NCBI GenBank assembly: GCA_964507275.1
Contig: CAZDPG010000001.1
Coordinates: 404,577-468,576 of the forward strand
DNA from: an uncultured Candidatus Saccharibacteria bacterium
GTDB lineage: Bacteria > Patescibacteriota > Minisyncoccia > Phycocordibacterales > Phycocordibacteraceae
Length of the DNA: 64,000 nt
Direction of reading: 5' to 3'
In this document: one piece after another, positions 1 to 26,324 of the stretch
Layout of the letters: each line of letters opens with the position of its first letter
How positions within the stretch are numbered: position 1 is the stretch's first letter
Made by a program: the position numbers and the translations under genes
The notes under the pieces: generated by a model
Databases searched by the model: none
Told to the model about the DNA's origin: nothing
Seen by the model: the letters and a program-made list of their open reading frames with translations, nothing else

Positions 1-998
1 TCGAAGCCGTCCATCTCGACGAGTATCTGATTGAGGGTCTGTTCGCGCTCATCGTTCCCGCCACCCATACCGCTCCCGCGCACACGACCGACCGCGTCGA
101 TTTCATCGACGAAGATGATTGCTGGTGCCGCCTTCTTCGCGAGTTGGAAGAGGTCGCGCACCCTTGAAGCCCCGACTCCCACGAACATCTCAACGAATTC
201 GGAGCCCGAGATAGAGAAGAATGGAACACCCGCTTCGCCCGCAACCGCGCGTGCAAGGAGCGTCTTGCCGGTACCAGGAGCACCCATGAGAAGGATACCC
301 TTCGGGATGCGCGCGCCGATATCGAGGAACTTCTTTGGGCTCTTGAGGAAGTCCACGATTTCAAGAAGTTCTTCTTTCGCCTCCCGCGACCCAGCGACGT
401 CCGCGAAGGTGACCCGTTGCGATATGTCAGCAGGATCTATGACACGCGCCTTCGACTGCCCGAAGCTAAATGCCTGCATACCCGCGCCTCGCACCTGGCG
501 CGAAAGGAACCAGAAGAGGAACACGATGAAGAGTATCGGAATGAAGATCGGTGCGAGATTCAAGAACCAGAACGTGAATCCTGACTGTCCCTGTATCGTG
601 ATAGAAACTTTGGTCAGCTCTTCTGGAGTGACGCCATAGGTCGCAAGCGTCTCAGGAAGACCGGCGGAAGGGTCTTTGCGAGACAGCTTCGTCGAGCCAT
701 CGGTGTACTCGAGCTCGAGCGAATCGCCATTGACGACGACTGCCTTCACCTTCCCTTCTCCGACGTCGGTCGCAACGACTGAAAGTGGGATAGTGGTGCT
801 CGATGTGGCGAAGCTCTCGACAAGCGAATACACGCTCATGAGAAGGAGGAATATGAGAACCGTCGTCAGAAGATTGCCGAAGAAAGACGGTCCTTTGAAA
901 AAAGTCTTCAACCCCCGCCGCTTCGCCCCTTTTGATGAGAGGAAAGGAGGATTCCCAGGCTTCTTCATCTTCGGTTTCTTTGGAGATATCGCTGCCAT
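1..998 (-). CDS. ftsH: ATP-dependent zinc metalloprotease FtsH (N-terminal part; gene continues beyond window start)
   Basis: Reverse-strand translation from ATG at 998-996 gives MAAISPKKP..., two TM segments, then the AAA module [51 protein letters not shown]...[12 protein letters not shown] (Walker A/B). It is absent from the ORF track because the window edge truncates it. The + strand ORF 31..639 is its shadow. Confidence 0.85.
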
Positions 999-1021
999 AG
1001 AAAATACTATACTCTATACCT

Positions 1022-1465
1022 ATGACTCTCGTCGAATATAAGAAGGCGCTCCTGAAGTTCGCTCCTATCGAGACGTTCTCGGCTGGTCTCGAACTCATCG
1101 GGTCCGAAGTGAAGGCGCTCAGGAGCAAGCTCGGCTCGCTCGATGGCGCACGCGTTGTGGTGCGCGGCGGCGAAGCGTTCATCGTCGGCATGACCATCCC
1201 GCCCTACCAGGCAGCCAACACGCCGAAGGACTATGACCCGGAGCGGGTGCGCCGTCTTCTCCTCACGAAGAAAGAGATCAACACACTCCTCATCGAGGAA
1301 GCGAAGAAAGGGTTGACAATCGTACCTCTTGAGGTGTATTCTAGTGGCAGACTCGTGAAAGCCCGTATCGCTATCGCTCGCGGCAAAGGGAAAGCCGACC
1401 GTCGCGAAGATTTGAAAAAGCGCGATGCAGGACGAGAGACCGCTCGCGTTCTGAAAAATCGCTAG
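1022..1465 (+). CDS. smpB: SsrA-binding protein SmpB
   Basis: 147 aa. The stretch KKALLKFAPIETFSAGLELIGSEVKALR...GARVVVRGGEAFIV is typical SmpB. It lies directly upstream of the tmRNA. Confidence 0.9.
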   Translation: MTLVEYKKALLKFAPIETFSAGLELIGSEVKALRSKLGSLDGARVVVRGGEAFIVGMTIPPYQAANTPKDYDPERVRRLLLTKKEINTLLIEEAKKGLTIVPLEVYSSGRLVKARIAIARGKGKADRREDLKKRDAGRETARVLKNR

Positions 1466-1512
1466 AGCCTATCAGTCGCAGAAAGTACGTGATGTTCTAT
1501 CATGTGTTTCCT

Positions 1513-1917
1513 GGGGGTGACCGGCTTTGACGGTCTGTACTTTGAAAGACGTGCGACGCAGTGCACTCTCGCCTACCACTCTAATCTAGCGAGAAAACAT
1601 ACTTGCAAAGAACACTCTTGCAAGCGTGAAGTCGCCATACTTCGGTATGAAGGACTTCACGTTCGCTTTCGCGACTGCCTAACCGCACCTCGCCAAGCGA
1701 CGTCTGTATCCTTGGGTTCCTTCAGTTGAGGATACAGGCGGAATTATCTGAAGGATCGATGCCCGGCCTCCCGCCCGGCGCATCTAAATAAGGGATCGGG
1801 CAGGAATGGTTTCGTTGGCGTTCCTCGCATCCTGCCTCAAACTTTAACGCCGACTATGCGTCGTAGACTCGCTTTCATAGCCAGATTCGGACCGGAGTTC
1901 AACTCTCCGCACCTCCA
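1513..1917 (+). ncRNA. ssrA: tmRNA (ssrA), one-piece, about 405 nt; CCA not encoded
   Basis: The 5' end GGGGGTGACCGGCTTTGACGG matches the canonical GGGGCTGATTCTGGATTCGACGG. The 3' end is GGACCGGAGTTCAACTCTCCGCACCTCCA with a T-arm TTCAA and an acceptor 3' strand CACCTCC that pairs with the 5' GGGGGTG, including a G3:U wobble (alanine identity). It sits next to smpB. The putative tag ORF is GCA(1605)...TAA(1680-1682). Confidence 0.8.
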
Positions 1918-1926
1918 CAACTATAA

Positions 1927-1963
1927 ACACAAAGGCCCAGAGTATCCCTCTGGGCCTTTGTGT
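1927..1963 (+). terminator. Hairpin terminator just 3' of the tmRNA
   Basis: Perfect 16-bp stem acacaaaggcccagag / ctctgggcctttgtgt with a 5-nt loop tatcc, 10 nt after the tmRNA 3' end. Confidence 0.65.
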
Positions 1964-1976
1964 ATGGCTTTGAGCG

Positions 1977-1987
1977 GGTTCTAATAT
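1977..1987. repeat. 11-bp direct repeat ggttctaatat (copy 1); copy 2 at 3296..3306
   Basis: Identical 11-mers at 1977-1987 and 3296-3306 bracket the low-GC two-gene islet exactly. Confidence 0.35.
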
Positions 1988-2008
1988 CCTCAGAGATCCC
2001 TGGACTAT

Positions 2009-2593
2009 TTATTCCATCAACCTGAACCAATCCCTGACAGCTAAGCGCAGGCGCTCAATTTCGTCTTCAGCGAGAGGACTGCAGTGCGCAATCGGTCCTC
2101 GCAGTATGTTCAGATTCGCCATCACACGCTCAACCGCTTTCACACTTGAGAAAATCGAGGCAAAGACATCCCAATTGCCTTTAATAATCTGACCCAGCTC
2201 GCCAAACGTGCAGAAATCGATCGGCTCATCCGAGCGTGGTGTGACACCAGAATCAATCTCTCTTTGCTGACGACCTTCCGCCTCAGTCCGCAAATCATTT
2301 GATACCCGAGTATTCCACCAATTTGGATCTGCAGCGACCAGTGTATCCACGATGAGACGCCTCACCGTTTTTTCGAGCGAATAGAACGTTTCATAGTGAG
2401 GTGCCATCGTGGCGGCCTCACTCCGAATATCCTGCTCGATCTGCGGATAATACGACTTATCGACAACAAGCACACTACTATGTTCCCTTCCCAAATCGAG
2501 GTTGTATTTAGCCTCAATCTCATCGAGGTTGTGCTCGATGAGCTGGCTTGTCATCGCAAATTCCTTTAGAGACGAGGAGGTGTTGCTCTTCAT
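2009..2593 (-). CDS. HEPN-like protein (R-x4-H motif LRGPIAHCSPL near the C-terminus); candidate RNase toxin
   Basis: 194 aa, in a ~47% GC islet. The C-terminal NLNILRGPIAHCSPLAEDEIERL fits the HEPN Rx4-6H catalytic motif and looks Swt1/Abi-like. Its start overlaps the stop of the upstream gene (ATGA). Confidence 0.5.
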   Translation of the reverse strand: MKSNTSSSLKEFAMTSQLIEHNLDEIEAKYNLDLGREHSSVLVVDKSYYPQIEQDIRSEAATMAPHYETFYSLEKTVRRLIVDTLVAADPNWWNTRVSNDLRTEAEGRQQREIDSGVTPRSDEPIDFCTFGELGQIIKGNWDVFASIFSSVKAVERVMANLNILRGPIAHCSPLAEDEIERLRLAVRDWFRLME

Positions 2594-3249
2594 TAGCTTA
2601 AGAGATGATCCTTCAGGCTTTTAAAAATTGCATTGAATACCGCGATATCCGAAGTGGCTGGTAGGTTCAAATTGATTGTATATCCTAGCTTGAGGTCTAC
2701 AGCCGTCCTAACTTTAGGCGGCCGCTCTTCCTGTACTCCAGATACTTCTTCTTCTCTCTCTTCAACTCCCGAGGGTTCTTCGCCGGTAGCATCGAAATTA
2801 GCAAGACTTTTCAAAGCTTCGAAAGATCCAATAATTCCCCTAACTGTACTGGAATTCGCTTCAAGACCAGTCGCTTGTACAACGACCCCCTTCAATTCAT
2901 TTGCCTTCAAATCGTGAGCGTATTCATTCAACTCGTAAAGCGCCGCGTACCCCGCCTTCACCGCTTGAGCTGCTGCACTAGACCGGAGTGCGGGGTTGCG
3001 AAATCTCTTATAAAGATCAGTTGGGGTCCCATCTCCATTGAGAAAACCGGTACGCTTCAGAAAAGGTATGATTGGTTTTGCTGTACCTCCTTTTTGACCC
3101 AACTTTGTAGCGAGAAAATCCTGGGTAAACCGATCGGGTGTCGCCGCTTGGACAACACGCTCAAGCGTCTTAGTTATGACGCCGTAAGCATTCATGTAGG
3201 GAATTTTTATGCTCCCGTTTGCACTACGCTTAGTTTCTCCGTCAGCCAT
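2593..3249 (-). CDS. Hypothetical protein, proximal gene of the two-gene islet operon (possible partner or antitoxin of the HEPN protein)
   Basis: 218 aa with no domain I can name. The stop and start overlap by 1 nt with the HEPN gene. Low-GC context directly downstream of the tmRNA. Confidence 0.5.
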   Translation of the reverse strand: MADGETKRSANGSIKIPYMNAYGVITKTLERVVQAATPDRFTQDFLATKLGQKGGTAKPIIPFLKRTGFLNGDGTPTDLYKRFRNPALRSSAAAQAVKAGYAALYELNEYAHDLKANELKGVVVQATGLEANSSTVRGIIGSFEALKSLANFDATGEEPSGVEEREEEVSGVQEERPPKVRTAVDLKLGYTINLNLPATSDIAVFNAIFKSLKDHLLS

Positions 3250-3295
3250 GGTACATATAGTCCTCCTTTTAGCAGAAAAAGCAAGTCTTTTAGCA

Positions 3296-3306
3296 GGTTC
3301 TAATAT
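3296..3306. repeat. 11-bp direct repeat ggttctaatat (copy 2)
   Basis: See copy 1 at 1977..1987. Confidence 0.35.
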
Positions 3307-3427
3307 TTGACCTTATTACCCCCGCCAAATGACCCCTCGGTCGGCTCAGGTTCACTCAAATTAGGCAGATGTATTGCTCCGCCATATATCAAACAGGTTC
3401 TAACATCCTTTAGGAAGTCCCACATAT

Positions 3428-3469
3428 AGAAACTAAGAACCCTCGCACGTGCGAGGGTTCTTAGTTTCT
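3428..3469. repeat. 42-bp perfect palindrome (20-nt arms, CG centre) in a divergent intergenic region, with a third AGAAACT half-site at 3498-3504
   Basis: agaaactaagaaccctcgca|cg|tgcgagggttcttagtttct is an exact reverse complement. It lies between the divergent genes 2593..3249(-) and 3579..4238(+), so it is a candidate operator or strong hairpin. Confidence 0.8.
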
Positions 3470-3578
3470 GAAACAATCGCAGTATCTTGCGTGTACTAGA
3501 AACTGAGAGCAGAAGAACCACCCGCTTCTCCCTCGCGTCATGGCACTCCTTATCGGGCATCTCGTAACATTCATCATT

Positions 3579-4238
3579 ATGATTGACTTCAAAAAAATTG
3601 CGGCCGTCCCTGTATTAGCAGCAACCTTTATCGTGGGCGGTGCAGTAACTGCTCTTGCGACCACCGCTTCCGCGGCAAATCAGGACGGAACCGGGCCAGC
3701 ACAGAGTGCCCAGAGAGCCCACGGGAGAGGTCCCGGCATCGGCGGCACTATCACCGCGATACAGGGTTCGACTATTACCATCACCGATAAGCGCGATGCC
3801 AAGACATACACCATCGACGCGAGCGGCGCGACAGTGAAGAAGATGTCGATAGGCACAGCGCCGGTAACCGAGACGCTCGCTGATCTCGCTGTCGGAGAAA
3901 TGATCATGGTCCGCGGAACCGTCTCCGGCACTTCGGTCACCGCGACAGAAGTCATGGAGGGCGACTTCCGTTTCGACGGCACAAGGCCGATGCAGGGTAA
4001 CCGACCAGGCGTCATAGGAACCGTCACTGCTGTACAGGGTTCGACTATCACGGTCACGAACATGGATGGCACCGTGCATACGATCGATGCGAGCGAAGCC
4101 ATTGTCGAGAAGCATGTGAGTAGCTCCCTTTCAGACATCACTGTCGGTGTCCGCATCAACGCGATGGGCACCATTTCCGGCACTTCAGTGAAAGCGAAAG
4201 TAATAGTAACCGGCGCTCCAATACTTCCCGTACGGTAG
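3579..4238 (+). CDS. Secreted protein with two internal ~75-aa tandem repeats (DUF5666-like); the ORF-track start 3540 is an alternative
   Basis: Signal peptide MIDFKKIAAVPVLAATFIVGGAVTALATTASAA. Repeats GTITAIQGSTITITD...TIDASGATV and GTVTAVQGSTITVTN...TIDASEAIV. It is the first gene of the ECF sigma cluster. Confidence 0.6.
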   Translation: MIDFKKIAAVPVLAATFIVGGAVTALATTASAANQDGTGPAQSAQRAHGRGPGIGGTITAIQGSTITITDKRDAKTYTIDASGATVKKMSIGTAPVTETLADLAVGEMIMVRGTVSGTSVTATEVMEGDFRFDGTRPMQGNRPGVIGTVTAVQGSTITVTNMDGTVHTIDASEAIVEKHVSSSLSDITVGVRINAMGTISGTSVKAKVIVTGAPILPVR

Positions 4239-4265
4239 ATTCAGCAGTAGCTCTTGCGCCACCCT

Positions 4266-4299
4266 AACGACAAGCCCTGCATGGGGCTTGTCGTTTTTT
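4266..4299 (+). terminator. Rho-independent terminator or attenuator
   Basis: Stem aacgacaagccc / gggcttgtcgtt followed by tttttt, between 3579..4238 and the ECF sigma gene. Confidence 0.6.
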
Positions 4300-4328
4300 G
4301 AAACAAAATCGCCACTCGCCTGTACTAT

Positions 4329-4898
4329 ATGAAGGTGGATACCACCCATCAAAACCCGACAGATGAGGAGATTGCTCTACGCGTCCAGCAAGGAGATTCT
4401 GAAGTCTTTGGTGTGTTAGTCGATCGCTACGAACAGAAGCTGCTGCGATACGGCAGAAAATTCCTCTCACGCCCTGAAGACGTACAGGATATCGTGCAAG
4501 ATGTTTTCATCCGCGCTTATCGGAATATCCAGAGCTTCGATCCGGCCCAGCGCTTCAATCCGTGGATCTACCGCATCGCGCACAATGCCTACCTGAACAC
4601 AATGCGACGTAATTCACTCGCGCCCCTTTCAGTCGACTTCGATACGGTACTGATTCACTTCAAATACGATGATCCGTCCGAGTCGGAACGCGAGCAGAAG
4701 GATATGCGCGACCTGATCGAACGTAGTATGAACGACATTCCCGCTAAGTATCGCGAAGTACTCATCCTTCATTATTTTGAAGAGATGCCTTATAAAGATA
4801 TCGCTGACGTACTAGAGATACCGGTCGGGACAGTCAGCATACGTCTCAGGCGAGCACGAGAAGCACTCAAAAAGAAAATTAACCCCGCACACCTATGA
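4329..4898 (+). CDS. ECF-family RNA polymerase sigma-70 factor
   Basis: 189 aa. Region 2 (DIVQDVFIRAYRNIQSFD...FNPWIYRIAHNAYLN) and region 4 (YREVLILHYFEEMPYKDIADVLEIPVGTVSIRLRRARE). The stop TGA overlaps the next ATG (ATGA). Confidence 0.85.
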   Translation: MKVDTTHQNPTDEEIALRVQQGDSEVFGVLVDRYEQKLLRYGRKFLSRPEDVQDIVQDVFIRAYRNIQSFDPAQRFNPWIYRIAHNAYLNTMRRNSLAPLSVDFDTVLIHFKYDDPSESEREQKDMRDLIERSMNDIPAKYREVLILHYFEEMPYKDIADVLEIPVGTVSIRLRRAREALKKKINPAHL

Positions 4899-5641
4899 AC
4901 CCTCACTCCCCCGAAGAAAAACCATCTGCACTCAGAGAACAGATACTCCGTGAGATTGGCTCAGGCAAGGTCGCCATGCGTCCGAAACTATACTTCTCTC
5001 TCAAAGTCTTCGCGACTATCTCCGTCGCTCTCGGCATCCTCATACTTTCAACATTCCTATTCAACTTCATACTCTTCAGTATCCGCATCAACGGACAAGA
5101 CGCCCTACTCGGATTCGGACCTCGTGGCATGCACGCTTTCCTGCGCTTCTTCCCATGGACACTCCTCATAGCTGACATTCTGCTCGTCGTGCTTCTCGGA
5201 AAACTCGTCCGGCGATTCCGTTTCGGCTACAAGACCCCGACCCTGCTCGTACTCGGGACTGTCTTCATCGGCACAATACTGATGGCAACCTTTCTCGACC
5301 GTGGGACCCATATGAACGACCGTCTCTTCAGAGCATCTCGCCAGCAGCACCTCCCCTCCCCCATGAATTCGCTCTATAGAGGTGCTCGCTTCGCCCCACC
5401 TCCCGTTGGGGGCATCCACAAAGGGGAGATCCTATCCATAACGGGGAGTTCCCTTGTCGTCAGACTTCTCGATGAAGAAAGTCGCACGGGCACCACGACC
5501 ATCACGGTCTTGTTGCCATTGGACAATTTCCGAGCAACCACGACAGGACTACGCTCCGGCGACACTGTCCTCATCGCCGGCGACGAGTCCGACGGCTTTT
5601 TGCGAGCCTTCGGTATCCGGAACATCACATCGGAAAATTAA
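4895..5641 (+). CDS. Putative membrane anti-sigma factor
   Basis: 248 aa, translationally coupled to the ECF sigma gene. An N-terminal cytoplasmic segment, then TM helices, then a C-terminal domain. Confidence 0.5.
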   Translation: MNPHSPEEKPSALREQILREIGSGKVAMRPKLYFSLKVFATISVALGILILSTFLFNFILFSIRINGQDALLGFGPRGMHAFLRFFPWTLLIADILLVVLLGKLVRRFRFGYKTPTLLVLGTVFIGTILMATFLDRGTHMNDRLFRASRQQHLPSPMNSLYRGARFAPPPVGGIHKGEILSITGSSLVVRLLDEESRTGTTTITVLLPLDNFRATTTGLRSGDTVLIAGDESDGFLRAFGIRNITSEN

Positions 5642-5688
5642 AAACATCGCGAGATAAAGCAACGCTAATTTTTGCTATACTTCCTGAA

Positions 5689-6252
5689 ATGAGTTTCCAG
5701 AACCGCAGGAACGGATTCTTGTTGCAGGATGTATTGATTATCGCAGCAAGTATTGGCATTGCGGTGTTCCTGACACAGACAGACACTCTCGTGACACTGC
5801 TCGTATCCACGAAAGAATTGGAGTTCCTCGGAAGCTTTCTAGCCGGGCTCTTCTTCACATCGGTCTTCACCACCGCCCCGGCGATAGTGACTCTCGGTGA
5901 GATTGCGCGTGCTAATTCGCTCGTGCCGGTCGTCGTATTCGGAACTCTCGGAGCCGTGATCGGCGACCTGCTCATATTCCGATTCGTGCGCGATCGGTTC
6001 TCGGAACACTTACTGGAGCTGGCGGGCCACAGAAGCATCGCGCGCCGTGCGCATGCACTGTTCAAGATGCGACTCTTCCGATGGCTCTCGCTCTTCGTCG
6101 GCGGAGTGATCATCGCCTCGCCATTCCCAGACGAGCTCGGCATCGGCCTCTTCGGTCTCGCGAAGGTAAAAACGTCGTGGTTCATCCCGCTCTCAGTCCT
6201 GTTCAATGCTCTCGGTATCCTCGCGATAGGAATCGTCGCACGAACGCTATGA
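5689..6252 (+). CDS. Small polytopic membrane protein (hypothetical)
   Basis: 187 aa with about 5 hydrophobic helices. Its TGA stop overlaps the start of the P-type ATPase gene. Confidence 0.5.
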   Translation: MSFQNRRNGFLLQDVLIIAASIGIAVFLTQTDTLVTLLVSTKELEFLGSFLAGLFFTSVFTTAPAIVTLGEIARANSLVPVVVFGTLGAVIGDLLIFRFVRDRFSEHLLELAGHRSIARRAHALFKMRLFRWLSLFVGGVIIASPFPDELGIGLFGLAKVKTSWFIPLSVLFNALGILAIGIVARTL

Positions 6253-8870
6253 CGATACGTAGCACAGATATCGATAAACTTCTGTCGCATCCTTTCTGGA
6301 TGCTGCCAGCATCGGAAGTCGCTGCCCTCCTGAAAACAAACATACAGGAAGGGCTTTCCGAGCACGAGGCCGAGAGGCGGCTTGCGATCTTTGGGCCGAA
6401 CATTATCGAGGAATCGCGGAAGGCTCCGTGGCTCCTCATCCTCCTCAACCAATTCAAGAGTCCGCTTATCCTGATTCTGTTGTTCGCTGGCACAGCCACG
6501 GTCTTCATCGCTCACTACCGCGACGCGCTCTTCATTTTCTCTACCATCGTCGTCAATGCGCTCCTCGGCTTCTATCAGGAACATAAAGCTGAGAAGGCGC
6601 TCTCCGAAATAAAGACTTATCTCAAACAGCGATCGCGTGTCATCCGCGATGGTGTCGAGCGTGATATAGATGCAGCGCAGGTAGTTCCGGGAGATGTGAT
6701 ACGCATCGCGCAGGGCGATCGCGTGAGCGCAGACGGACGACTCGTGTTCGTAAACGATCTCCAAATCGACGAAGCGATTCTCACCGGAGAATCGCTCCCT
6801 TCAGCGAAATCAGCAAGCCCTGCGAGTCTCTCCGCAGGGCTTGCTGATCAGCGCTCTATGGCCTTCGCAGGGACACTCGTCACGCAAGGTATCGGCACGG
6901 CGATAGTATGCCGAACCGATTTCTCAACCGAGCTGGGAAAGATTGCAGCGCTCGTCGGCGAATCACACCGGGAGGAGACGCCGCTTCAGAAAGCAATTAA
7001 GACATTCAGCCTTCAAGCGGGAGTCCTCTTGAGCATCCTCACGCTCGCGGTTTTCGGTGCGGGGATTGCTCTTGGGTATTCCCATATGGACATGTTCCTC
7101 ACGTCCGTCGCCATTGCCGTCTCGGCGGTTCCCGAGGGCTTACCAGTGGCGATGACGGTCATCCTCGCAATAGGTGTGCAGCGCATGGCACGGCGCAAAG
7201 GCGTCATACGGAAACTCATCGCTGCCGAAGCACTCGGGAGCACGACGATTATCCTGACCGATAAGACCGGGACGCTCACCATGGCGAACATGGCGCTTAG
7301 CAAGCTATTGCCCACCCTAGGCGAAACTGAGGAATCGTTGCTCGACATGGCACTCCTCAATACGGACGTCCTCGTGGAGAACCCTGATGATCCTCCCTCA
7401 GAGTGGCGCATGAGCGGACGCGTACTGGAGGCCGCACTCACGCGCTCTGCGGCAGGGCGGGGTGGGAGAACTGCTGTGGAGATAAAGCTCGCGACTCCCG
7501 TCTTGAGCTTTCTGCCGTTCAATGCCGTTAATAAATTCTCCGCCTCGCTCACACACCTCCATGGGAAATATCTGCTGACCTTCTTCGGAGCGCCTGAAAC
7601 ATTCATCATGCACTCGACACTCTCACCAGTGGAGCAAGAAGAGGCTCTCAAGAAAATCGATGAGCTCGCACAATCGGGCGAACTCGTCATGGGTATAGCG
7701 ACGAAAGAGATCGAGAAGCCTGATGACTTCACGTTCTCGAATGACTTGAAATTCTCCCACCTTTCTTTCAGAGGGCTACTGACCTTGCGCGACCCTATCC
7801 GCCCGAATGTCAAAGAAGCCATACGCGATGTTGAGTTGGCGGGGATACGGACGATTATCATGACGGGAGATCATCGTGGCACAGCCGAGGCAATCGCACG
7901 CGAAGTCGGTATGGAAATCGACGAGCATAGCATCCTCGACGCCGGAGAGCTTCGTGGATTGACGGATGAGGAGCTGAAAGAGCGGTTGCCGCATATTCGC
8001 GTCATCGCGCGCGTCTCACCGCTCGACAAGATGCGTATCGTACAGATGTTTCAAAGCATGGGCGAAATCGTAGCGATGACTGGCGACGGGGTGAACGACG
8101 CGCCAAGCATTAAGCAAGCGGATATCGGCATCGCTATGGGATCAGGCACGGAAGTTTCTCGTAGCGTCGCGGACCTGGTACTCCTGGATGATAATTTTGA
8201 AACCATCGTCGCTGCCGTCGAAGAAGGACGGCAGATCATGCATAACATACGCAAGGTACTGGTGTACCTCCTCTCCTCTGTGGCAGACGAGCTCTTTCTT
8301 ATCGGCGGGGCGCTCGCAACCGGTCTTGTGCTCCCGCTGAATGCGCTCCAGATACTTTGGGTGAATTTCTTTTCAGATAGCTTCCCGGCGGTTGCATTCG
8401 CTTTCGAGAAGAATGCTGACGGACGGATGACCCGCCGACCGCAGAGCATACGCGACGGATTGTTCGATCCGGTGATGCGGTTTCTCATCCTTTCTATCGG
8501 CCTCTCCACAAGCGTCCTGCTCTTCTTCTTGTACTGGGCACTCCTGCGCGCAGGATTCCCTGAGGACATCGTGCGCACGTTCATCTTCGCAAGCTTCGGG
8601 AGCTATTCCTTATTCCTCGCGTTTTCTTTGCGGAGCTTGGAGAAGAGTATCTTCAGCTTCTCCCTGTTTTCTAATCGCTATCTGGTCGGCGGCGTGGGGA
8701 TCGGCATCACACTCTTGGGCATAGCGATCTATGTGCCTTTCTTCCAATCAATCCTCGACACTGTCGCCCTATCGCTTCCATGGGTTCTCGGCGTGGCGTC
8801 TGTCGGTGTGATAAATATCGTCGCAGTGGAGCTCGGTAAGTGGTTTTTCAGTCGGCGGCAGGCAGTATAG
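6249..8870 (+). CDS. P-type cation-transporting ATPase (P2-type Ca2+/Mg2+-like)
   Basis: DKTGTLT phosphorylation motif, TGDGVNDAPSIKQADIGIAMG hinge motif, cation-ATPase N-terminal and C-terminal TM bundles. The ORF track begins at 6081; the true start is ATG 6249 (MTIRSTDIDKLL...). Confidence 0.9.
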   Translation: MTIRSTDIDKLLSHPFWMLPASEVAALLKTNIQEGLSEHEAERRLAIFGPNIIEESRKAPWLLILLNQFKSPLILILLFAGTATVFIAHYRDALFIFSTIVVNALLGFYQEHKAEKALSEIKTYLKQRSRVIRDGVERDIDAAQVVPGDVIRIAQGDRVSADGRLVFVNDLQIDEAILTGESLPSAKSASPASLSAGLADQRSMAFAGTLVTQGIGTAIVCRTDFSTELGKIAALVGESHREETPLQKAIKTFSLQAGVLLSILTLAVFGAGIALGYSHMDMFLTSVAIAVSAVPEGLPVAMTVILAIGVQRMARRKGVIRKLIAAEALGSTTIILTDKTGTLTMANMALSKLLPTLGETEESLLDMALLNTDVLVENPDDPPSEWRMSGRVLEAALTRSAAGRGGRTAVEIKLATPVLSFLPFNAVNKFSASLTHLHGKYLLTFFGAPETFIMHSTLSPVEQEEALKKIDELAQSGELVMGIATKEIEKPDDFTFSNDLKFSHLSFRGLLTLRDPIRPNVKEAIRDVELAGIRTIIMTGDHRGTAEAIAREVGMEIDEHSILDAGELRGLTDEELKERLPHIRVIARVSPLDKMRIVQMFQSMGEIVAMTGDGVNDAPSIKQADIGIAMGSGTEVSRSVADLVLLDDNFETIVAAVEEGRQIMHNIRKVLVYLLSSVADELFLIGGALATGLVLPLNALQILWVNFFSDSFPAVAFAFEKNADGRMTRRPQSIRDGLFDPVMRFLILSIGLSTSVLLFFLYWALLRAGFPEDIVRTFIFASFGSYSLFLAFSLRSLEKSIFSFSLFSNRYLVGGVGIGITLLGIAIYVPFFQSILDTVALSLPWVLGVASVGVINIVAVELGKWFFSRRQAV

Positions 8871-8986
8871 TCTTTATTGACTTCCCTCCTGTTTTTACGT
8901 AAGGTAACCCTGCAATTAGCCGGATTTCCGGGTGTAATTCGCTGATCTTCAAGCAGCCAATCCCCCACCAACCAGAGGAGAGCTAT

Positions 8987-9631
8987 ATGAACGAACTTGA
9001 ACAAGCCAAGATGATTCTCACCCAGATGGGAGCGGTCATCACCGACAGTCACGTCGTCTACCCGTCGGGCAAACATGGCTCGACGTACATCGAGAAGGAT
9101 TTGCTCTATCCCTATCCATGGAAGACAGCCCGGCTCTGCGGGATAATCGCCGATCATTTCTGCGACGATAACGTGCGCGTGGTCATCGCTCCGTCGGCCG
9201 ATGGCATCGCCCTGTCCCAATGGACGGCGCATTTCCTTTCTCTCCCAATCGGAGCCCCTGAAATACTTGCTGTGCATGCCGATGAAGTCGAGGGCGACCT
9301 CATCATCAGCCGCGTTTACGAAAGGTTCATCCGCGACAAGCGCGTCCTCGTGGTCGACCACTCCCTCACCACTGATAGCGTCGTGAAGGATACGGTGAAA
9401 GCGGCACGGACGGCTGGCGGCATCGTCGTCGGTGTTGGCGTCCTCTGCAACTGCTGTGGCGAGGCGGCGCTCGATCTCGCCAGCGTCCCGAAGATCCTCG
9501 CGGTCGTAAACACGCCATTCGACTCGTGGAGCGAGGCAGACTGCCCGCTCTGCAAGCAGGGCATGCCGATCAATACGGATGTCGGCAAGGGACGCGAGTT
9601 CCTCGACGCGAAGATGCTGTATCAGGCGTGA
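8987..9631 (+). CDS. Type I phosphoribosyltransferase-domain protein (orotate-PRTase-like)
   Basis: 214 aa with a PRPP-binding loop KRVLVVDHSLTTDSVV. A good RBS gaggagagctatATG. The opposite-strand ORF 8729..9652 is R/D-rich shadow. Confidence 0.6.
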   Translation: MNELEQAKMILTQMGAVITDSHVVYPSGKHGSTYIEKDLLYPYPWKTARLCGIIADHFCDDNVRVVIAPSADGIALSQWTAHFLSLPIGAPEILAVHADEVEGDLIISRVYERFIRDKRVLVVDHSLTTDSVVKDTVKAARTAGGIVVGVGVLCNCCGEAALDLASVPKILAVVNTPFDSWSEADCPLCKQGMPINTDVGKGREFLDAKMLYQA

Positions 9632-9650
9632 TCTTCCGGTCCGCCTACTC

Positions 9651-9690
9651 AAGGCTCGTACTGTGTAGTGCGAGCCTTTCTTTATTTATC
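9651..9690 (+). terminator. Hairpin plus T-tract terminator after the PRTase gene (between convergent genes)
   Basis: aaggctcgtac tgtgta gtgcgagcctt followed by tctttatttat. Confidence 0.5.
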
Positions 9691-10810
9691 GTACGCTCGT
9701 GTAGCCGCCAGGGATGCCGGAGGGCGAAAGGACGATCTGCCAGAGATGAATCTTGCGGGCGCGGAATGCTCCAGCGCAGGAGAGCAGATAGTATTTCCAC
9801 ATCCTATAAAACCTCTCTCCATACTTCTCTTTCAAGTTCGGCCACGCCGCATCGAAGTTCTTGAACCACGCCATGAGCGTTGTATCATAATCCGGACCGA
9901 AATTGTGCCAGTCCTCCATCACGAAAAGACCCTCGCTCGCTTCCCCTATCCCCTGAATCGAAGGAATCACACCACCTGGAAAGATGTATTTATTAATCCA
10001 TGGGTCGCTCGTCGTGCGCGAAATATTATCGCCGATGGTGTGCAGGAGGAAGAGTCCGTCAGGCTTCAAGCAGCGGCGTGCGACTTCGAAATAGGTGCGG
10101 TAATTCTTCACGCCTACATGCTCGAACATGCCTAGGGAAACGATATGATCGAACTCCTCACGCATTTCGCGATAATCCTGAACGCGAATGTCGATAGGAA
10201 GACCTTTGCAGCGCTCACGTGCGAGCGCTGCCTGCTCTACTGAGACGGTGATACCGACAACCGTCGCTCCGTATTTCTCTGCAGCGAACTTCGCGAAACT
10301 CCCCCACCCGCACCCGATGTCCAATATCCTATCTCCCGACTTCAGTCCTATCTTCCGGCACACTAAATCAAGCTTCGCCTCCTGCGCTTCATCAAGCGTC
10401 GTTGCATCCTTCCAGTACCCGCACGTGTAGACCATTCGTTTGTCCAGCATCGCCTCGTATAGATCGTTCCCGAGATCGTAATGTGCCTCGCCCACGACGA
10501 ACGCGCGGGCACTCGATTGCAGATTGAATAGAAATGCCTTAGCGATAGCGAAGACGGATGCAACATTGAATTTAATCTCCTCTTCCAAACGCGCCGAGAG
10601 CACGTTATGGATGAACGCATCGATATGCTTTGCATCCCACCAGCCGTCCATGTATGCCTCGCCGAGACCGAGCGTTCCGAAGCGGATAACGCGATTGAAG
10701 AGCCGCCCGTCGTGGACGGTAATATCCTGCGGACGATTTCCCCCGATGGTTACATCGACTGTCTTGAGAAGATCCTCGACGAAGGCGCGGGCAGAAGCCA
10801 TACGCCGCAC
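9686..10810 (-). CDS. cfa: Cyclopropane-fatty-acyl-phospholipid synthase family SAM-dependent methyltransferase
   Basis: 374 aa with the SAM motif ILDIGCGWGSFAKFAAEKYGATVVGIT and the Cfa signature HIVSLGMFEHVG...YFPGGVIPS. Confidence 0.85.
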   Translation of the reverse strand: MRRMASARAFVEDLLKTVDVTIGGNRPQDITVHDGRLFNRVIRFGTLGLGEAYMDGWWDAKHIDAFIHNVLSARLEEEIKFNVASVFAIAKAFLFNLQSSARAFVVGEAHYDLGNDLYEAMLDKRMVYTCGYWKDATTLDEAQEAKLDLVCRKIGLKSGDRILDIGCGWGSFAKFAAEKYGATVVGITVSVEQAALARERCKGLPIDIRVQDYREMREEFDHIVSLGMFEHVGVKNYRTYFEVARRCLKPDGLFLLHTIGDNISRTTSDPWINKYIFPGGVIPSIQGIGEASEGLFVMEDWHNFGPDYDTTLMAWFKNFDAAWPNLKEKYGERFYRMWKYYLLSCAGAFRARKIHLWQIVLSPSGIPGGYTSVR

Positions 10811-10833
10811 TATACCCCGGTAATTATAAAAAG

Positions 10834-12618
10834 CTAGCGTCGTGCTTTCGCGCGATCGTTCTCCGTCAAATACTGTTTACGCAATCTCACCGACAGCGGC
10901 GTGACCTCGAGATACTCGTCTTCGTTCATGATCTCCATGCCGCGCTCGATCGAAAGGTCGAAGATCGGCACGAGTGTAAGAGCCTCGTCCATACCCGATG
11001 AGCGGACGTTCGACTGGTTCTTGCCCTTCGTGGGATTCGCAAGCATTTCCTCGCCCTTTGAAGTATTGCCGATGACCATACCCTCGTACACTTCGGTCGC
11101 TGGCTTGATGTAGAGCTGGCCTCGATCCTGCAAGTACCAGAGCGAGTAGCCGAGCGCCTTGCCGCTTGCCATCGAAATCATCGAACCGACTTGGCGGCGC
11201 TTGATCTCGCCGGCGTACGGCTTGAACTCGATGAAGCGCGAAGAGAGGATGCCCTCGCCCTTGGTGTCGACGACGAAGATGTTCTTGTAGCCAAGGAGTC
11301 CGCGGGTTGGCCCGAGCATCGTGAGGCGCACGAGGTTCTCGTGCTGGGTGAGGTTCTGGAGCACGAAAGCGCGCATGCCGAGCTTCTCAATGATAGCGCC
11401 CTGGAACTCGCTCGGCGTATCGATGATGACTTCCTCGAACGGTTCCATCTTCACGCCGTTCTCCTCGCGGATGATGACCTGCGGCTGAGAAACCTGGAGC
11501 TCATACCCCTCGCGACGCATGTTCTCAATCAAGACCGCAATGTGGAGCTCGCCACGACCGGAGACCTTGAAGGATTCTGAGCCGGAGAAGTCGACCTTGA
11601 GACCGACGTTCACCTCGAGCTCTTTCTCGAGGCGGTCGCGAATCTGGCGGCTCGTCACATACTTGCCTTCTCGCCCGGCAAAAGGAGAGTTATTCACGAG
11701 GAAGTTGAGCGAGATTGTCGGCTCATCCACCGCAATAGCCGGGAGTGGCGTTGCGTTCTCGTCAGACGTGATGGTCTCGCCGATATAGGTATCAGGGAGG
11801 CCGGCGATGAGCACAATGTCGCCTGCTTTTGCCTCAGCAGTCTCGACGCGCTCGAGACCCTTGAAGGTAAACATCTTCGTAATCTTGCCCGGGATTGTCT
11901 CGCCATTCGTTTTCTTCTCGAACACGTTCTGATTCGTACGTACCGTACCCGCGTAGATACGAGCAACGGCAAGTCGACCCAAGAAATTGTCATAAGCGAG
12001 ATTGAAAGGCTGCATCATGAGCGGTGCCTCGGCATCGGCGTGCATGTTTGCTGCCGGGACCTTCTCGAGGATCATGTCGAGGAGCGGAGTGAGATCCTTA
12101 CGCTCGTCCGAGAGATTCTTCATCGCAAGACCTTCGCGACCGATTGAATAGATTACCGGGAAATCACACTGTTCGTCAGAAGCCCCGAGTTCCATGAAAA
12201 GTTCGAGCACCTGGTCATGCGCGCGCGCAGGATCGGCTGCTGGTTTGTCGATCTTGTTCAAGACGACAATAGGCTTCAATCCGAGATCGAGCGACTTCTT
12301 GAGTACGAAACGGGTCTGCGGCATCGGACCCTCCTGAGCATCGACGACAAGGAGCACCGAGTCGATCGAGCGGAGCACGCGCTCCACCTCGCTACCGAAG
12401 TCAGCGTGGCCCGGTGTGTCGACGATGTTGATCTTGGTGCCCTTGTACTCGACGGCCGCATTCTTGGCATAGATGGTGATGCCGCGCTCGCGTTCGATAG
12501 TATTGCTGTCCATCGTGGTGCCCTCGGGTGAGGCGCCGGTCTGCTTAAGAATAGCGTCAGTCAAAGCCGTCTTCCCGTGGTCGACGTGCGCGATGATAGC
12601 GATATTGCGTATTTCCAT
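10834..12618 (-). CDS. typA: Translational GTPase TypA/BipA
   Basis: 594 aa with G1 [23 protein letters not shown], and EF-G-like domains. Confidence 0.9.
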
Positions 12619-23841: not shown

Positions 23842-24429
23842 TTACTCCTGGCCAGGATTCGGTATGAAATGGATTGACTCAAGAAGCGGCTGGAAATCGC
23901 GTCGAATGTCGGAGTCCTTGTCCAAGAACTGTCCTGTTATGACGTAAACACTGTCTCCATGAGCAACCACGGCGTTCTCTGATGCATAGAGGCCGTCTGC
24001 TATATAGCGTATCGCATTGGCTCCACCAACCGTAGTCTCTGAAACATCGCCCGTCTTGAGGTTGATATTGCTGTACGGAATGTGTGTATCAGCCCACGTC
24101 TGCGGCCACTGCTTCTGCGGATTCTCAAAGATATATATCGCTATGACCGCAGGTCCCTCGCCGCCGACAGGCATTTCTCGCGACGCGTCCTCGGCACGGA
24201 TGAGAGTGAGTGCCTTCACGAGACCCGCTTGCGCATCTGCAGGCGCTGATTCTTCGAGCACATAGCCCTGCGGCCCAGAACGATAAGAAAACTCAATGCC
24301 AAGCTCGCTACTACTAAAGGTCGAGTACTGAGTATTTAGTCCCAGATTAATTTCTGTGACATCTGTTCGAAGCAGGACGAGCCCTGCCACGGCGAGCACT
24401 GCCACAAGGATGAGTAGCATTTTCTTCAT
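23842..24429 (-). CDS. Secreted hypothetical protein
   Basis: Signal peptide MKKMLLILVAVLAVAGLVLL. The ORF track extends to 24456. Confidence 0.5.
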   Translation of the reverse strand: MKKMLLILVAVLAVAGLVLLRTDVTEINLGLNTQYSTFSSSELGIEFSYRSGPQGYVLEESAPADAQAGLVKALTLIRAEDASREMPVGGEGPAVIAIYIFENPQKQWPQTWADTHIPYSNINLKTGDVSETTVGGANAIRYIADGLYASENAVVAHGDSVYVITGQFLDKDSDIRRDFQPLLESIHFIPNPGQE

Positions 24430-24436
24430 GTTCACA

Positions 24437-24718
24437 TCAGATCTGCGCGCCGTCACCGAGATTCACCTCAGCCTTATAACGCTCAATTACCTCAGGATGC
24501 TTGCCTTCTTTGCACTCAGCGACGAATTTCTCAGCACTCGCGCCATCGGGGAAGGTCATGTAAGAGAGAGATCCCTCGCACACCGCATTGATGTCGATCT
24601 TGCCCTGTGAAGCCGTATCGGTTTGCCTTTGTGTGGAGAGACCATAGCCTATACCCACAATAACGAGCCCTGCAAGAATAATTAAAGCTGTTTTCATAGC
24701 GGCGAGTGTTTTCCTCAT
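24437..24718 (-). CDS. Small secreted or membrane-anchored protein
   Basis: 93 aa with an N-terminal TM/signal and two Cys. Confidence 0.4.
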   Translation of the reverse strand: MRKTLAAMKTALIILAGLVIVGIGYGLSTQRQTDTASQGKIDINAVCEGSLSYMTFPDGASAEKFVAECKEGKHPEVIERYKAEVNLGDGAQI

Positions 24719-24878
24719 GATGATAATTATACGCTCCTAACCCGTCTAGGTCGCCGGGTACCAAAAACTAAGCTGCTGGCCTCCTCGGATTCGTACATTG
24801 TACCGTGAGGCACTATAAGGGTTTTCTGGCGCCTTTTTTCAGCCCCTTTCGACCCTCCTCGGAATGGCGCTTTCGTCG

Positions 24879-25421
24879 CTAAATGTTACTAACTCTATTG
24901 TGGATATACGCTGACGCCTCCTGACGGAAGGATTCAATAAATTCGTTGGGGATATTGTGTTCTCCTCGTATCGCATAAGCTCTCATATTACTCAGGTACT
25001 CCCACTCAACTATCGCCATAATGACTTGTTCGAGAGTTTTGTTTGGAAGCTGAATTAGATCAGTGTAATAACCGTCTGCACCGAGGTCTTGTGCATCGAA
25101 CTTTCTCCGAGTATCAAGAATGATATTTAGGATATCGTTTTCCGAATATGACGGAACAAACTTATTTTCAGCATTTTCTTGCCTGAATTTCTTTATATCC
25201 CCAACCGTCGCATCATTCCGGAGCCCACTTTCATTTGTGAGGCTCTCAATGTTAACAGACGGTTTTGCGGTTTTTGCCCATGCTTTAAAAGCGGAAGAAT
25301 TCTCATCCTTCAGCTTCTTATAAATCCTTATCTGGTGGCTTACTACTCCCTTATATCCAAGAAACGGCAATGCCTTTACGAGCAATCCGGCGAGAAATCC
25401 CCTAGAATTCAAAATCTGCAT
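24879..25421 (-). CDS. Hypothetical protein in the ~40% GC islet
   Basis: 180 aa with no recognisable domain. Strongly AT-shifted codon usage relative to the flanks. Confidence 0.45.
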   Translation of the reverse strand: MQILNSRGFLAGLLVKALPFLGYKGVVSHQIRIYKKLKDENSSAFKAWAKTAKPSVNIESLTNESGLRNDATVGDIKKFRQENAENKFVPSYSENDILNIILDTRRKFDAQDLGADGYYTDLIQLPNKTLEQVIMAIVEWEYLSNMRAYAIRGEHNIPNEFIESFRQEASAYIHNRVSNI

Positions 25422-25483
25422 TTCTGTATTTTATCACCTTCAAACTCCCGATGGGTCAAAGTGGCCAATCTCCTTCATGATTG

Positions 25484-26173
25484 TTACTTCATATATCCTC
25501 CTCCAGAACCCATTTGCTCTCCAAATTTATATAAGAAATTCTGTTGCGTCTCATATGTCTTCTCAGGAAAACCGGCAATGGCGGCGTTATACTTAATGGT
25601 AAGCGAACAAACCATATCTTCACCGCCCTGCAAACTTATAGATTTTACGATACTTTGGTTGATGCCTATAACATCATTTTTCGACACAAACGTCGGTGGT
25701 TCTTTAGACGGACAATCCATAGCCTGGTATAAAATTCTTGCAGGTAAATTCCCAGAATTTTTTATAAAAATCCGATAGTCTGATTTTTTAGATACTAAAT
25801 CCGTATTTCCTTCAACATTTTCAATTGTCAGGTATGGTCTCGTCCTGAGTTCGAATTCAATGCCTGCTCTTTGTGTCGCAAGCCAAGAGAAAATCATACT
25901 TGAAACAGCAACAATGGCTAAAATTCTATTTGTTAAAATTGAATTTCTTCTTTCCAAATTTATTGCTTCATTTTCTTTTTCGTAAACGTTTGATTTTTCA
26001 ATCTCCATATCCATCTCATCCTTAAAATCATCCGCTAGGCTCTTTTCGGCTCTTTCTCTCACACTGGAAAAGGCAAGTCCACGTTCAGCGAAGTTGTTTT
26101 GCATCTCTAACAAATCCCGGTCGTGCTTTCTTTTACGGAACCTTAACCAAATCTCAAGATATTTATGATTCAT
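25484..26173 (-). CDS. Hypothetical single-pass membrane protein in the low-GC islet
   Basis: Start MNHKYLEIW at 26173, only 14 nt from the tRNA-Gln 3' end. A cytoplasmic helical N-terminus, then TM ILAIVAVSSMIFSWL, then a ~130-aa external domain. Confidence 0.45.
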   Translation of the reverse strand: MNHKYLEIWLRFRKRKHDRDLLEMQNNFAERGLAFSSVRERAEKSLADDFKDEMDMEIEKSNVYEKENEAINLERRNSILTNRILAIVAVSSMIFSWLATQRAGIEFELRTRPYLTIENVEGNTDLVSKKSDYRIFIKNSGNLPARILYQAMDCPSKEPPTFVSKNDVIGINQSIVKSISLQGGEDMVCSLTIKYNAAIAGFPEKTYETQQNFLYKFGEQMGSGGGYMK

Positions 26174-26186
26174 ATTGTGATCTCTG

Positions 26187-26257
26187 CTGCGGGTCAGGGA
26201 CTCGAACCCCAATACCATCCTCCAGAGGGATGTGTCCTACCATTAGACGAACCCGCA
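26187..26257 (-). tRNA. tRNA-Gln (anticodon CTG); CCA not encoded
   Basis: TGCGGGTTCGTCTAATGGTAGGACACATCCCTCTGGAGGATGGTATTGGGGTTCGAGTCCCTGACCCGCAG. U1:A72, anticodon loop CTCTGGA, T-loop TTCGAGT, discriminator G, all as in bacterial tRNA-Gln. Confidence 0.85.
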
Positions 26258-26324
26258 AGAGCACGACACCGAAGTGCCGTGCTCCATAGAAGATACTTGA
26301 AAACGGTCCTTTATTCAACCAGCA

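Follow-up and report, generated by a model that had tools for sequence, protein, structure and literature searches.

The closest described relative of the locus reported here is PDC-M34, a candidate multi-gene phage defence system from a guilt-by-embedding screen, whose source cassettes were embedded in BREX, DISARM or restriction-modification (RM) systems (Payne et al., bioRxiv 10.1101/2024.01.29.577857). Table S8 of that preprint records it as CAS_00130 (FAM_01148>>FAM_01657); the count is 97 and the entry reads 'Assign as candidate PDC-M34' (bioRxiv 10.1101/2024.01.29.577857). Within the preprint we found PDC-M34 in this assignment table only and not among the tested candidates found there, and other papers call PDC systems unpublished or awaiting validation. 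Here, we describe a two-gene cassette, genes A and B, at the 3' end of ssrA, the transfer-messenger RNA (tmRNA) gene, in a 64,000-nucleotide stretch of contig CAZDPG010000001.1 (hereafter the window). Both products match the PADLOC models of PDC-M34 nearly end to end: the 218-residue protein of gene A matches PDC-M34A (PDLC04589) at 4.2e-45 over residues 16-216 of 218, and the 194-residue protein of gene B matches PDC-M34B (PDLC04592) at 6.4e-38 over residues 7-191 of 194. The order, A then B, and the shared strand also agree. Judged by these matches, the locus is an instance of an already catalogued candidate, not a new kind of system. A previous reading of the DNA letters and their translations (the sequence-only reading) had held that the pairing could not be assigned to a named system; a catalogue name does exist, that of a bioinformatic candidate. 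Whereas the defining copies are embedded in BREX, DISARM or RM systems, the window copy stands on its own, as a 1.5-kb insert at ssrA, in a genome of the Candidate Phyla Radiation (CPR).

Two minus-strand genes directly 3' of ssrA had been proposed from the letters, and open reading frame (ORF) calls, ARAGORN and Rfam agree on that arrangement. The native backbone gene smpB (1022-1465, plus strand; ORF call and Pfam SmpB), whose 90%-identity cluster members are named Candidatus Paceibacterota, is directly followed by ssrA on the same strand (1513-1918 by ARAGORN; 1513-1920 by Rfam RF00023, 102.5 bits). Gene B (2009-2593) and gene A (2593-3249), both ORF calls on the minus strand, encode a HEPN protein and a DUF5343 protein, respectively. 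On the coding strand their junction reads TAATG, in which the stop TAA of gene A and the start ATG of gene B share one A at position 2593; the 1-nt overlap described previously is therefore present at that position, and the 'ATGA' given for it is not. Residues K10 and F12 of the gene B product, upstream of an internal Met14, are conserved in homologues of about 195 residues, so the overlapping start is the real start of gene B, though some gene callers chose Met14.

The product of gene B matches Pfam PF18731, HEPN_Swt1, with 36.4 bits against a gathering threshold of 27.5 (E 7e-9, residues 70-192). Its C-terminal segment NLNILRGPIAHCSPLAEDEIERL carries the arrangement R165-x4-H170, and the catalytic-type residues N162, R165 and H170 (LRGPIAHC), together with much of the protein, are invariant in an alignment of 23 homologues. 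An AlphaFold2 model is all-helical, with a mean pLDDT of 78.8 and values above 90 in much of the core. The best fold match of this model is AbiF (PDB 8vz6, score 7.9 over 150 residues), followed by the C-terminal domain of yeast Swt1 (4pqz, 6.3), TTHA0636 (1wwp, 6.2) and HI0074 (1jog, 5.8), with HEPN-MNT toxins, Cas13b, sacsin HEPN and Csm6 scoring 4.8-5.4. With a pI of 4.95 the protein is acidic; it carries a conserved N-terminal extension of 70 residues and has 2045 matches at E <= 1e-3. Taken together, the Pfam and PADLOC matches, the invariant motif and the fold matches of the all-helical model place it in the Swt1/Abi2 clade of HEPN proteins as defined by Anantharaman et al. 2013 (PMC3710099). 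The R-x4-H motif and Swt1/Abi-like affinity suggested earlier were thus borne out, and a HEPN fold is found in profile searches. In HEPN domains, an intact R-x4-6-H motif is the mark of an endoRNase that works as a dimer and needs no metal (PMC3710099), and, as a member of this clade with an intact R-x4-H, the gene B product is most likely a dimeric, metal-independent endoribonuclease.

The partner protein, in which no recognisable domain had been seen, is a clear member of Pfam DUF5343, matching at 1e-42 over residues 17-155; this was the only Pfam family reported for it. Alignment with its homologues (3663 matches at E <= 1e-3; 2138 representative clusters at 50% identity) divides it into three parts: the conserved domain (17-155), a variable acidic linker (156-186) and a nearly invariant C-terminal segment (187-218) of 32 residues, DLKLGYTINLNLPATSDIAVFNAIFKSLxxHLL, which lies outside the Pfam model. 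The structural model (pLDDT 75.6) contains helices, a short hairpin (70-77), a disordered part (159-186) and, over residues 202-217, a terminal helix modelled with confidence; the C-terminal strand-helix (187-218) includes the helix DIAVFNAIFKSL. The winged-helix-like domain has a basic pI of 9.6, and the linker an acidic one of 4.3. Sequence and profile searches of the PDB returned no solved relative for either the DUF5343 or the HEPN protein, and NCBIfam gave no match for either. One further protein, P0282 (L184:5001-6374), has a DUF5343 domain fused to a Ser/Thr protein kinase domain; its gene lies 2.6 kb from a canonical DUF5343-HEPN pair and adjoins an IS110 transposase and a TIR-domain protein. 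By this fusion, DUF5343 looks modular. As a separate observation, the DUF5343 terminal helix IAVFNAIFKSLK (residues 202-213) resembles the invariant HEPN segment WDVFASIFSSVK (141-152), a marginal likeness over 12 columns (hhalign P = 0.025) that may hint at helix mimicry between the partners and serves as a lead only.

We surveyed one genome per species for relatives of the HEPN protein, obtaining 143 relatives and keeping 80 loci. These are spread sparsely and patchily over Patescibacteria, Actinomycetota, Chloroflexota, Cyanobacteria, Planctomycetota, Nitrospirota, Gemmatimonadota, Acidobacteriota, Verrucomicrobiota, Bacteroidota, Pseudomonadota and other phyla, with 49-76% identity to the window HEPN protein. 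In about 74 of the 80 loci, the gene that directly precedes the HEPN gene on its strand encodes a DUF5343 protein, and the exceptions are interrupted, truncated or degraded copies. Among 75 A/B junctions, 47 overlap and 26 have a gap of 0-17 nt, so that the translationally coupled pairing put forward from the single locus is conserved across phyla. The neighbourhood, by comparison, is heterogeneous: the 144 neighbouring proteins surveyed include four Phage_integrase, three PIN and two NYN proteins and many housekeeping proteins, and no third gene is conserved near the pair. This heterogeneity, with no conserved third gene, identifies the pair as a self-contained two-gene module.

Comparison with close relatives establishes that the module was inserted into the window. 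Contigs matching the window come from a groundwater metagenome (PRJNA292723). Two relatives, L177 and L180, belong to the 90%-identity cluster of the window's SmpB and retain the gene order of the window (FtsH, smpB, ssrA, orf219/232, an ECF sigma factor and an overlapping 248-residue ORF; in L177, whose contig extends that far, also the P-type ATPase). Blastn gives 87-93% DNA identity between these relatives and the window for positions 1-1928/1934 and again from 3420 onwards, and both cassette genes are absent between these shared flanks. In these empty sites the tmRNA 3' end, ...CTCCACA, runs directly into TATAGAAAC in L180 (TACAAAAAC in L177) and then into a perfect palindrome. In the window the palindrome, with 21-nt arms (42 nt), lies at 3428-3469 (plus strand); since it directly follows ssrA in both relatives, it is the native ssrA terminator, displaced 1.5 kb by the insertion. 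Several short-read (Logan) contigs of the host break inside this palindrome, near 3457, which looks like an assembly artefact of the perfect palindrome and not strain variation.

Alignment to the empty sites defines the insert as positions 1920-3424, a segment of 1505 bp and about 47% GC with no counterpart in L177 or L180. Its first base lies no more than 2 nt from where the tmRNA is annotated to end (1918 by ARAGORN, 1920 by Rfam). The attL-like left junction CCACAACTATAAAC (1915-1928, plus strand) was placed by alignment and blastn to both relatives, and the attR-like right junction CCACATATAGAAAC (3420-3433, plus strand) matches the L180 empty-site sequence exactly. The two ends share CCACA exactly (5 nt), or 14 nt imperfectly, and CCACA is the last 5 nt in common with the empty sites. 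According to the ORF calls, the insert holds two genes only and no integrase. By these comparisons the insert is a horizontally acquired, integrase-less segment carrying one self-contained operon at the ssrA 3' end of a Paceibacterota genome. The foreign origin supposed by the sequence-only reading is upheld by these shared flanks that lack the cassette, and the comparison of synteny at ssrA gave no conserved presence of the genes across relatives: the pair was also absent from 80 further relatives (SmpB identity 74-90%) within the flank of up to 6 kb retrieved around smpB. These further relatives were set aside as clean empty sites, right-flank synteny being missing, and an exact SmpB look-up for empty sites returned cassette-bearing contigs only.

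The segment 1977-3306 has a GC content of 47.4%, against a window mean of 54.0% (sd 2.8, same-size windows) and flanks of about 55%, which puts it in the lowest 3% of windows (z = -2.3); the dip is real but modest. The islet value of about 47% reported earlier thus stands, and the 58-60% ascribed to its flanks does not. Those same coordinates, 1977-3306, had been taken as the islet; they correspond to the outer ends of the exact cores of a direct repeat and fall short of the insert at both ends. The repeat brackets both genes as CTTTGAGCGGGTTCTAATAT (1968-1987, plus strand, 21 nt past the HEPN stop) and CTTTTAGCAGGTTCTAATAT (3287-3306, plus strand), which match at 18 of 20 positions, a score reached by 0 of 60 shuffles. 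As an attachment site it was rejected: it is internal to the insert and missing both from the empty sites and from L181, the closest cassette. A repeat search found a third partial copy of its core, GGTTCTAACATCCT, at 3396-3409 (plus strand), so that three copies containing GGTTCTAAYAT lie inside the insert; they represent neither duplicated target sequence nor ends that cassettes have in common. A reading of the right end, about 3384-3424, as a decayed duplicate of the tmRNA 3' end was dropped after a shuffle-tested local alignment (p ~0.35).

The insert also carries putative regulatory elements of its own. A hairpin with a 16-bp stem at 1927-1963 (minus strand), found as an inverted repeat and by a terminator scan, scores as a terminator for the minus-strand operon; it is not in the empty sites and now also lies 3' of ssrA. 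Its absence from those sites marks it as having come in with the insert, as the operon's own terminator-like element. The promoter-proximal region (3250-3306, minus strand) has a -10-like hexamer just upstream of the gene A ATG and contains CTGCTAAAAG twice, 21 nt apart, at plus-strand positions 3266-3275 and 3287-3296. This pair, partly kept in L181, is a candidate operator; as a general operator it was rejected, not being shared generally by other cassettes. Separately, a TACAAT/TATAAT-like hexamer stands 5-9 nt ahead of the DUF5343 start in the window (3250-3270) and in L183, L012, L010 and L008, where a Shine-Dalgarno sequence is often lacking, and the A-B operon may be transcribed as a leaderless mRNA.

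Elsewhere, the cassette is repeatedly found at the ends of tRNA and tmRNA genes. The 80 loci contain 29 such genes, of which 13 lie within 350 nt of the cassette against 1.4 expected (P = 4e-10), and 11 of these 13 have their 3' end turned towards the cassette. Several loci are bounded by repeats of a tRNA 3' end. Perfect repeats of 43 nt (L039) and 49 nt (L081) enclose islets of 7.9 and 6.2 kb, each with a tyrosine integrase; a perfect 45-nt repeat (L062) encloses a 5.2-kb islet with an rve transposase, and a perfect 43-nt repeat (L030) a 2.55-kb islet with a PIN toxin. In L026, a 43-nt repeat at 95% identity is part of a second tRNA-Leu gene, and a tyrosine integrase lies beside the cassette. 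At several other loci the cassette stands alone between significant direct repeats: perfect ones in L045 (25 nt; about 9130-9160 and 10700-10730), L044 (23 nt) and L076 (16 nt), and further ones in L051 (57 nt, a degenerate tRNA-Ala half) and L009 (29 nt). Between the repeats of L045, L044 and L076 there is no integrase, and no tRNA was detected. In L181, whose HEPN protein is 91% identical to that of the window, the likeness extends only from 58 nt upstream of gene A to the gene B stop, and a tRNA/tmRNA-like 3' end lies about 190 nt past the HEPN gene, oriented as in the window. The enrichment near these RNA genes and the tRNA-end repeats identify site-specific integration at tRNA/tmRNA 3' ends as the recurrent route. 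The window copy is either a minimal remnant or a segment mobilised in trans.

The surroundings of the insert are themselves variable. The interval between ssrA and a conserved CMAS-BipA-Nramp block differs among L099, L098, L111, L142, L160 and the window, from about 0 kb in L099 and L111 to about 7.7 kb in the window, where positions 1920-9700 also hold an ECF sigma module, a P-type ATPase and a 214-residue protein; the whole region downstream of ssrA is a variable hotspot in this lineage. Elsewhere in the window, the strongest GC trough (24600-26300, 39.5-42% against the 54% mean) adjoins tRNA-Gln (26186-26257, minus strand). Three minus-strand ORFs there (24879-25421, 25484-26218 and 23842-24456) have no Pfam match, and the trough may be a second tRNA-linked islet.

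On balance, we think it probable that the pair is a toxin-antitoxin (TA)-like abortive-infection RNase in which the product of gene A restrains that of gene B until a trigger arrives. Four features match a type II TA arrangement employed in abortive infection: the order A then B, the translational coupling, the combination of a basic helical domain with a disordered acidic linker, and the short invariant C-terminal peptide. Gene A is translated first, and gene B is coupled to it. The A product would hold the HEPN protein inactive, probably through the invariant C-terminal strand-helix on its acidic disordered linker, and its basic winged-helix-like domain would bind nucleic acid, with a part in autoregulation of the operon, in the sensing of an invader, or in both. 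Phage infection would remove or occupy A, the freed RNase activity of B would abort the infection, and B acting without control would arrest growth. Consistent with such an antiviral role, some pairs lie near TIR, Bub/Bil-like or OLD-like genes, serine recombinases or IS110 elements; one (P0006) adjoins a Bub/Bil-like cluster and two serine recombinases.

Several observations weigh against the abortive-infection reading. Defence genes are a small minority of the neighbours, with GajA/OLD-like ATPases making up 3-4 of the 144 proteins, and many copies, including that of the window, sit among housekeeping genes. Searches of 72,556 plasmid and 50,697 phage records returned no copy of the pair, and neither protein has a match in PHROGs. 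For a defence or TA module, the conservation of the two proteins is unusually high, with 50-77% identity across phyla. The single fusion ORF in L075, considered as a natural A-B fusion, looks like stop-codon loss in a partly frameshifted gene. Finally, full-text literature searches on DUF5343, PDC-M34 and HEPN_Swt1 found no functional study of the pair.

A rival account is that the pair is a plain type II TA addiction module which stabilises itself and its carrier islets by post-segregational killing, with no antiviral role. The gene architecture fits this account just as well; the pair is often the sole cargo of a tiny insert or a small integrase islet, as selfish modules are, and its neighbours are mostly non-defence genes. 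We nevertheless regard it as unlikely, since the PDC-M34 family was defined from cassettes inside BREX, DISARM or RM systems, some copies lie beside the TIR, Bub/Bil-like and OLD-like genes mentioned above, and the pair is missing from the plasmid records, where addiction modules are usually common.

Restraint of B by A might also be the wrong sign. DUF5343 could be the sensing or targeting subunit of a two-subunit nuclease, with a nucleic-acid-binding domain that would recognise DNA or RNA of an invader and recruit or activate the HEPN protein, in which case B alone would be inert and not toxic. That DUF5343 is highly conserved, modular and also found fused to a kinase (P0282) would suit this arrangement, as would the weak BrxA-like fold of A, and strong conservation of both partners fits cooperating subunits better than a fast-evolving antitoxin. 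The BrxA similarity is weak, however, with no sequence-level link found in Pfam or in a PDB profile search, and an acidic disordered linker followed by a short conserved C-terminal peptide is the classic layout of an antitoxin. As the data fit activation and inhibition alike, the activating role is not singled out by them, and we hold it to be rather improbable. A reading of A and B as old housekeeping genes of the lineage, such as those of an RNA-processing enzyme and its regulator, which look island-like by local composition only, might be argued from the modest GC dip (z = -2.3) and the strong conservation of both proteins, but is effectively refuted by the base-precise empty sites in relatives with 87-93% identical flanks. 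Also against it are the 0 of 80 relatives carrying the genes near ssrA, a sparse and patchy occurrence in many phyla, identity that reaches 76% with copies from other phyla, and the tRNA-end repeats and integrases that flank the pair elsewhere.

A broader proposal, which we offer tentatively and consider doubtful, joins the modularity of DUF5343 to the mobility of the cassette. DUF5343 may be a modular, nucleic-acid-binding invader sensor with a BrxA-like fold that serves varied effectors: in cis a Ser/Thr kinase, and in trans the HEPN RNase, through a short C-terminal peptide possibly mimicking one of the HEPN helices. The cassette, of 1.3-1.5 kb, may move without an integrase of its own, being picked up at the 3' ends of tRNA and tmRNA genes by integrases supplied in trans. 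Such capture would explain why the cassette recurs as sole cargo between target-derived direct repeats.

Returning to the abortive-infection reading, its interest lies partly in the host. CPR bacteria are thought to carry few defences; should the pair be a functional abortive-infection RNase, it would show that these bacteria take up minimal immune cassettes at ssrA. Among the many predicted defence systems apparently without a functional test is PDC-M34, and the present locus is an unusually clean natural example of it, with a base-defined insertion, empty sites in sister genomes, the operon's own terminator and a Paceibacterota host with a largest assembled contig of 673 kb. The comparative data offer handles on the system in R165 and H170, in the C-terminal peptide that is invariant in DUF5343 and in the fusion of DUF5343 to a kinase, and they suggest that such two-gene cassettes spread through integration at tRNA/tmRNA ends.

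Beyond PDC-M34, the locus can be set against four groups of known elements. Like tRNA/tmRNA islets and integrase-less, att-flanked remnants of the cis-mobilisable kind, the window insert sits at an RNA gene 3' end, here that of ssrA, has short imperfect junction repeats and is absent from relatives; it differs in the shortness of the junction repeat (5 nt exact, or 14 nt imperfect) and in having no integrase, whereas the homologous islets L039, L081 and L026 carry one. AbiF (Abi_2), the best fold match of the HEPN protein, is a protein of about 300 residues with a non-coding RNA (ncRNA) partner (8vz6, a PbAbiF dimer), whereas the window HEPN protein is partnered by a protein and is 14% identical to AbiF. 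Looking for an AbiF-type ncRNA at the cassette, we found no tandem repeats, intergenic space of less than 180 nt, and the tmRNA as the only Rfam match in positions 1-12000. The fold of the gene A product is weakly similar to BrxA (DUF1819; 7zge, 3bhw), with scores within the generic winged-helix range and no link from DUF5343 to BrxA by sequence or profile in Pfam or the PDB profile search, and the DUF5343 protein adds the disordered linker and C-terminal peptide. From HEPN-MNT and other type II HEPN TA pairs (7ae2, 5yep), the window pair differs in its HEPN clade, in the N-terminal extension of its HEPN protein and in having a partner other than a nucleotidyltransferase, from which neutralisation by AMPylation would not be expected. 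With type II TA systems it shares its basic layout, that of two small, co-directional and coupled genes.

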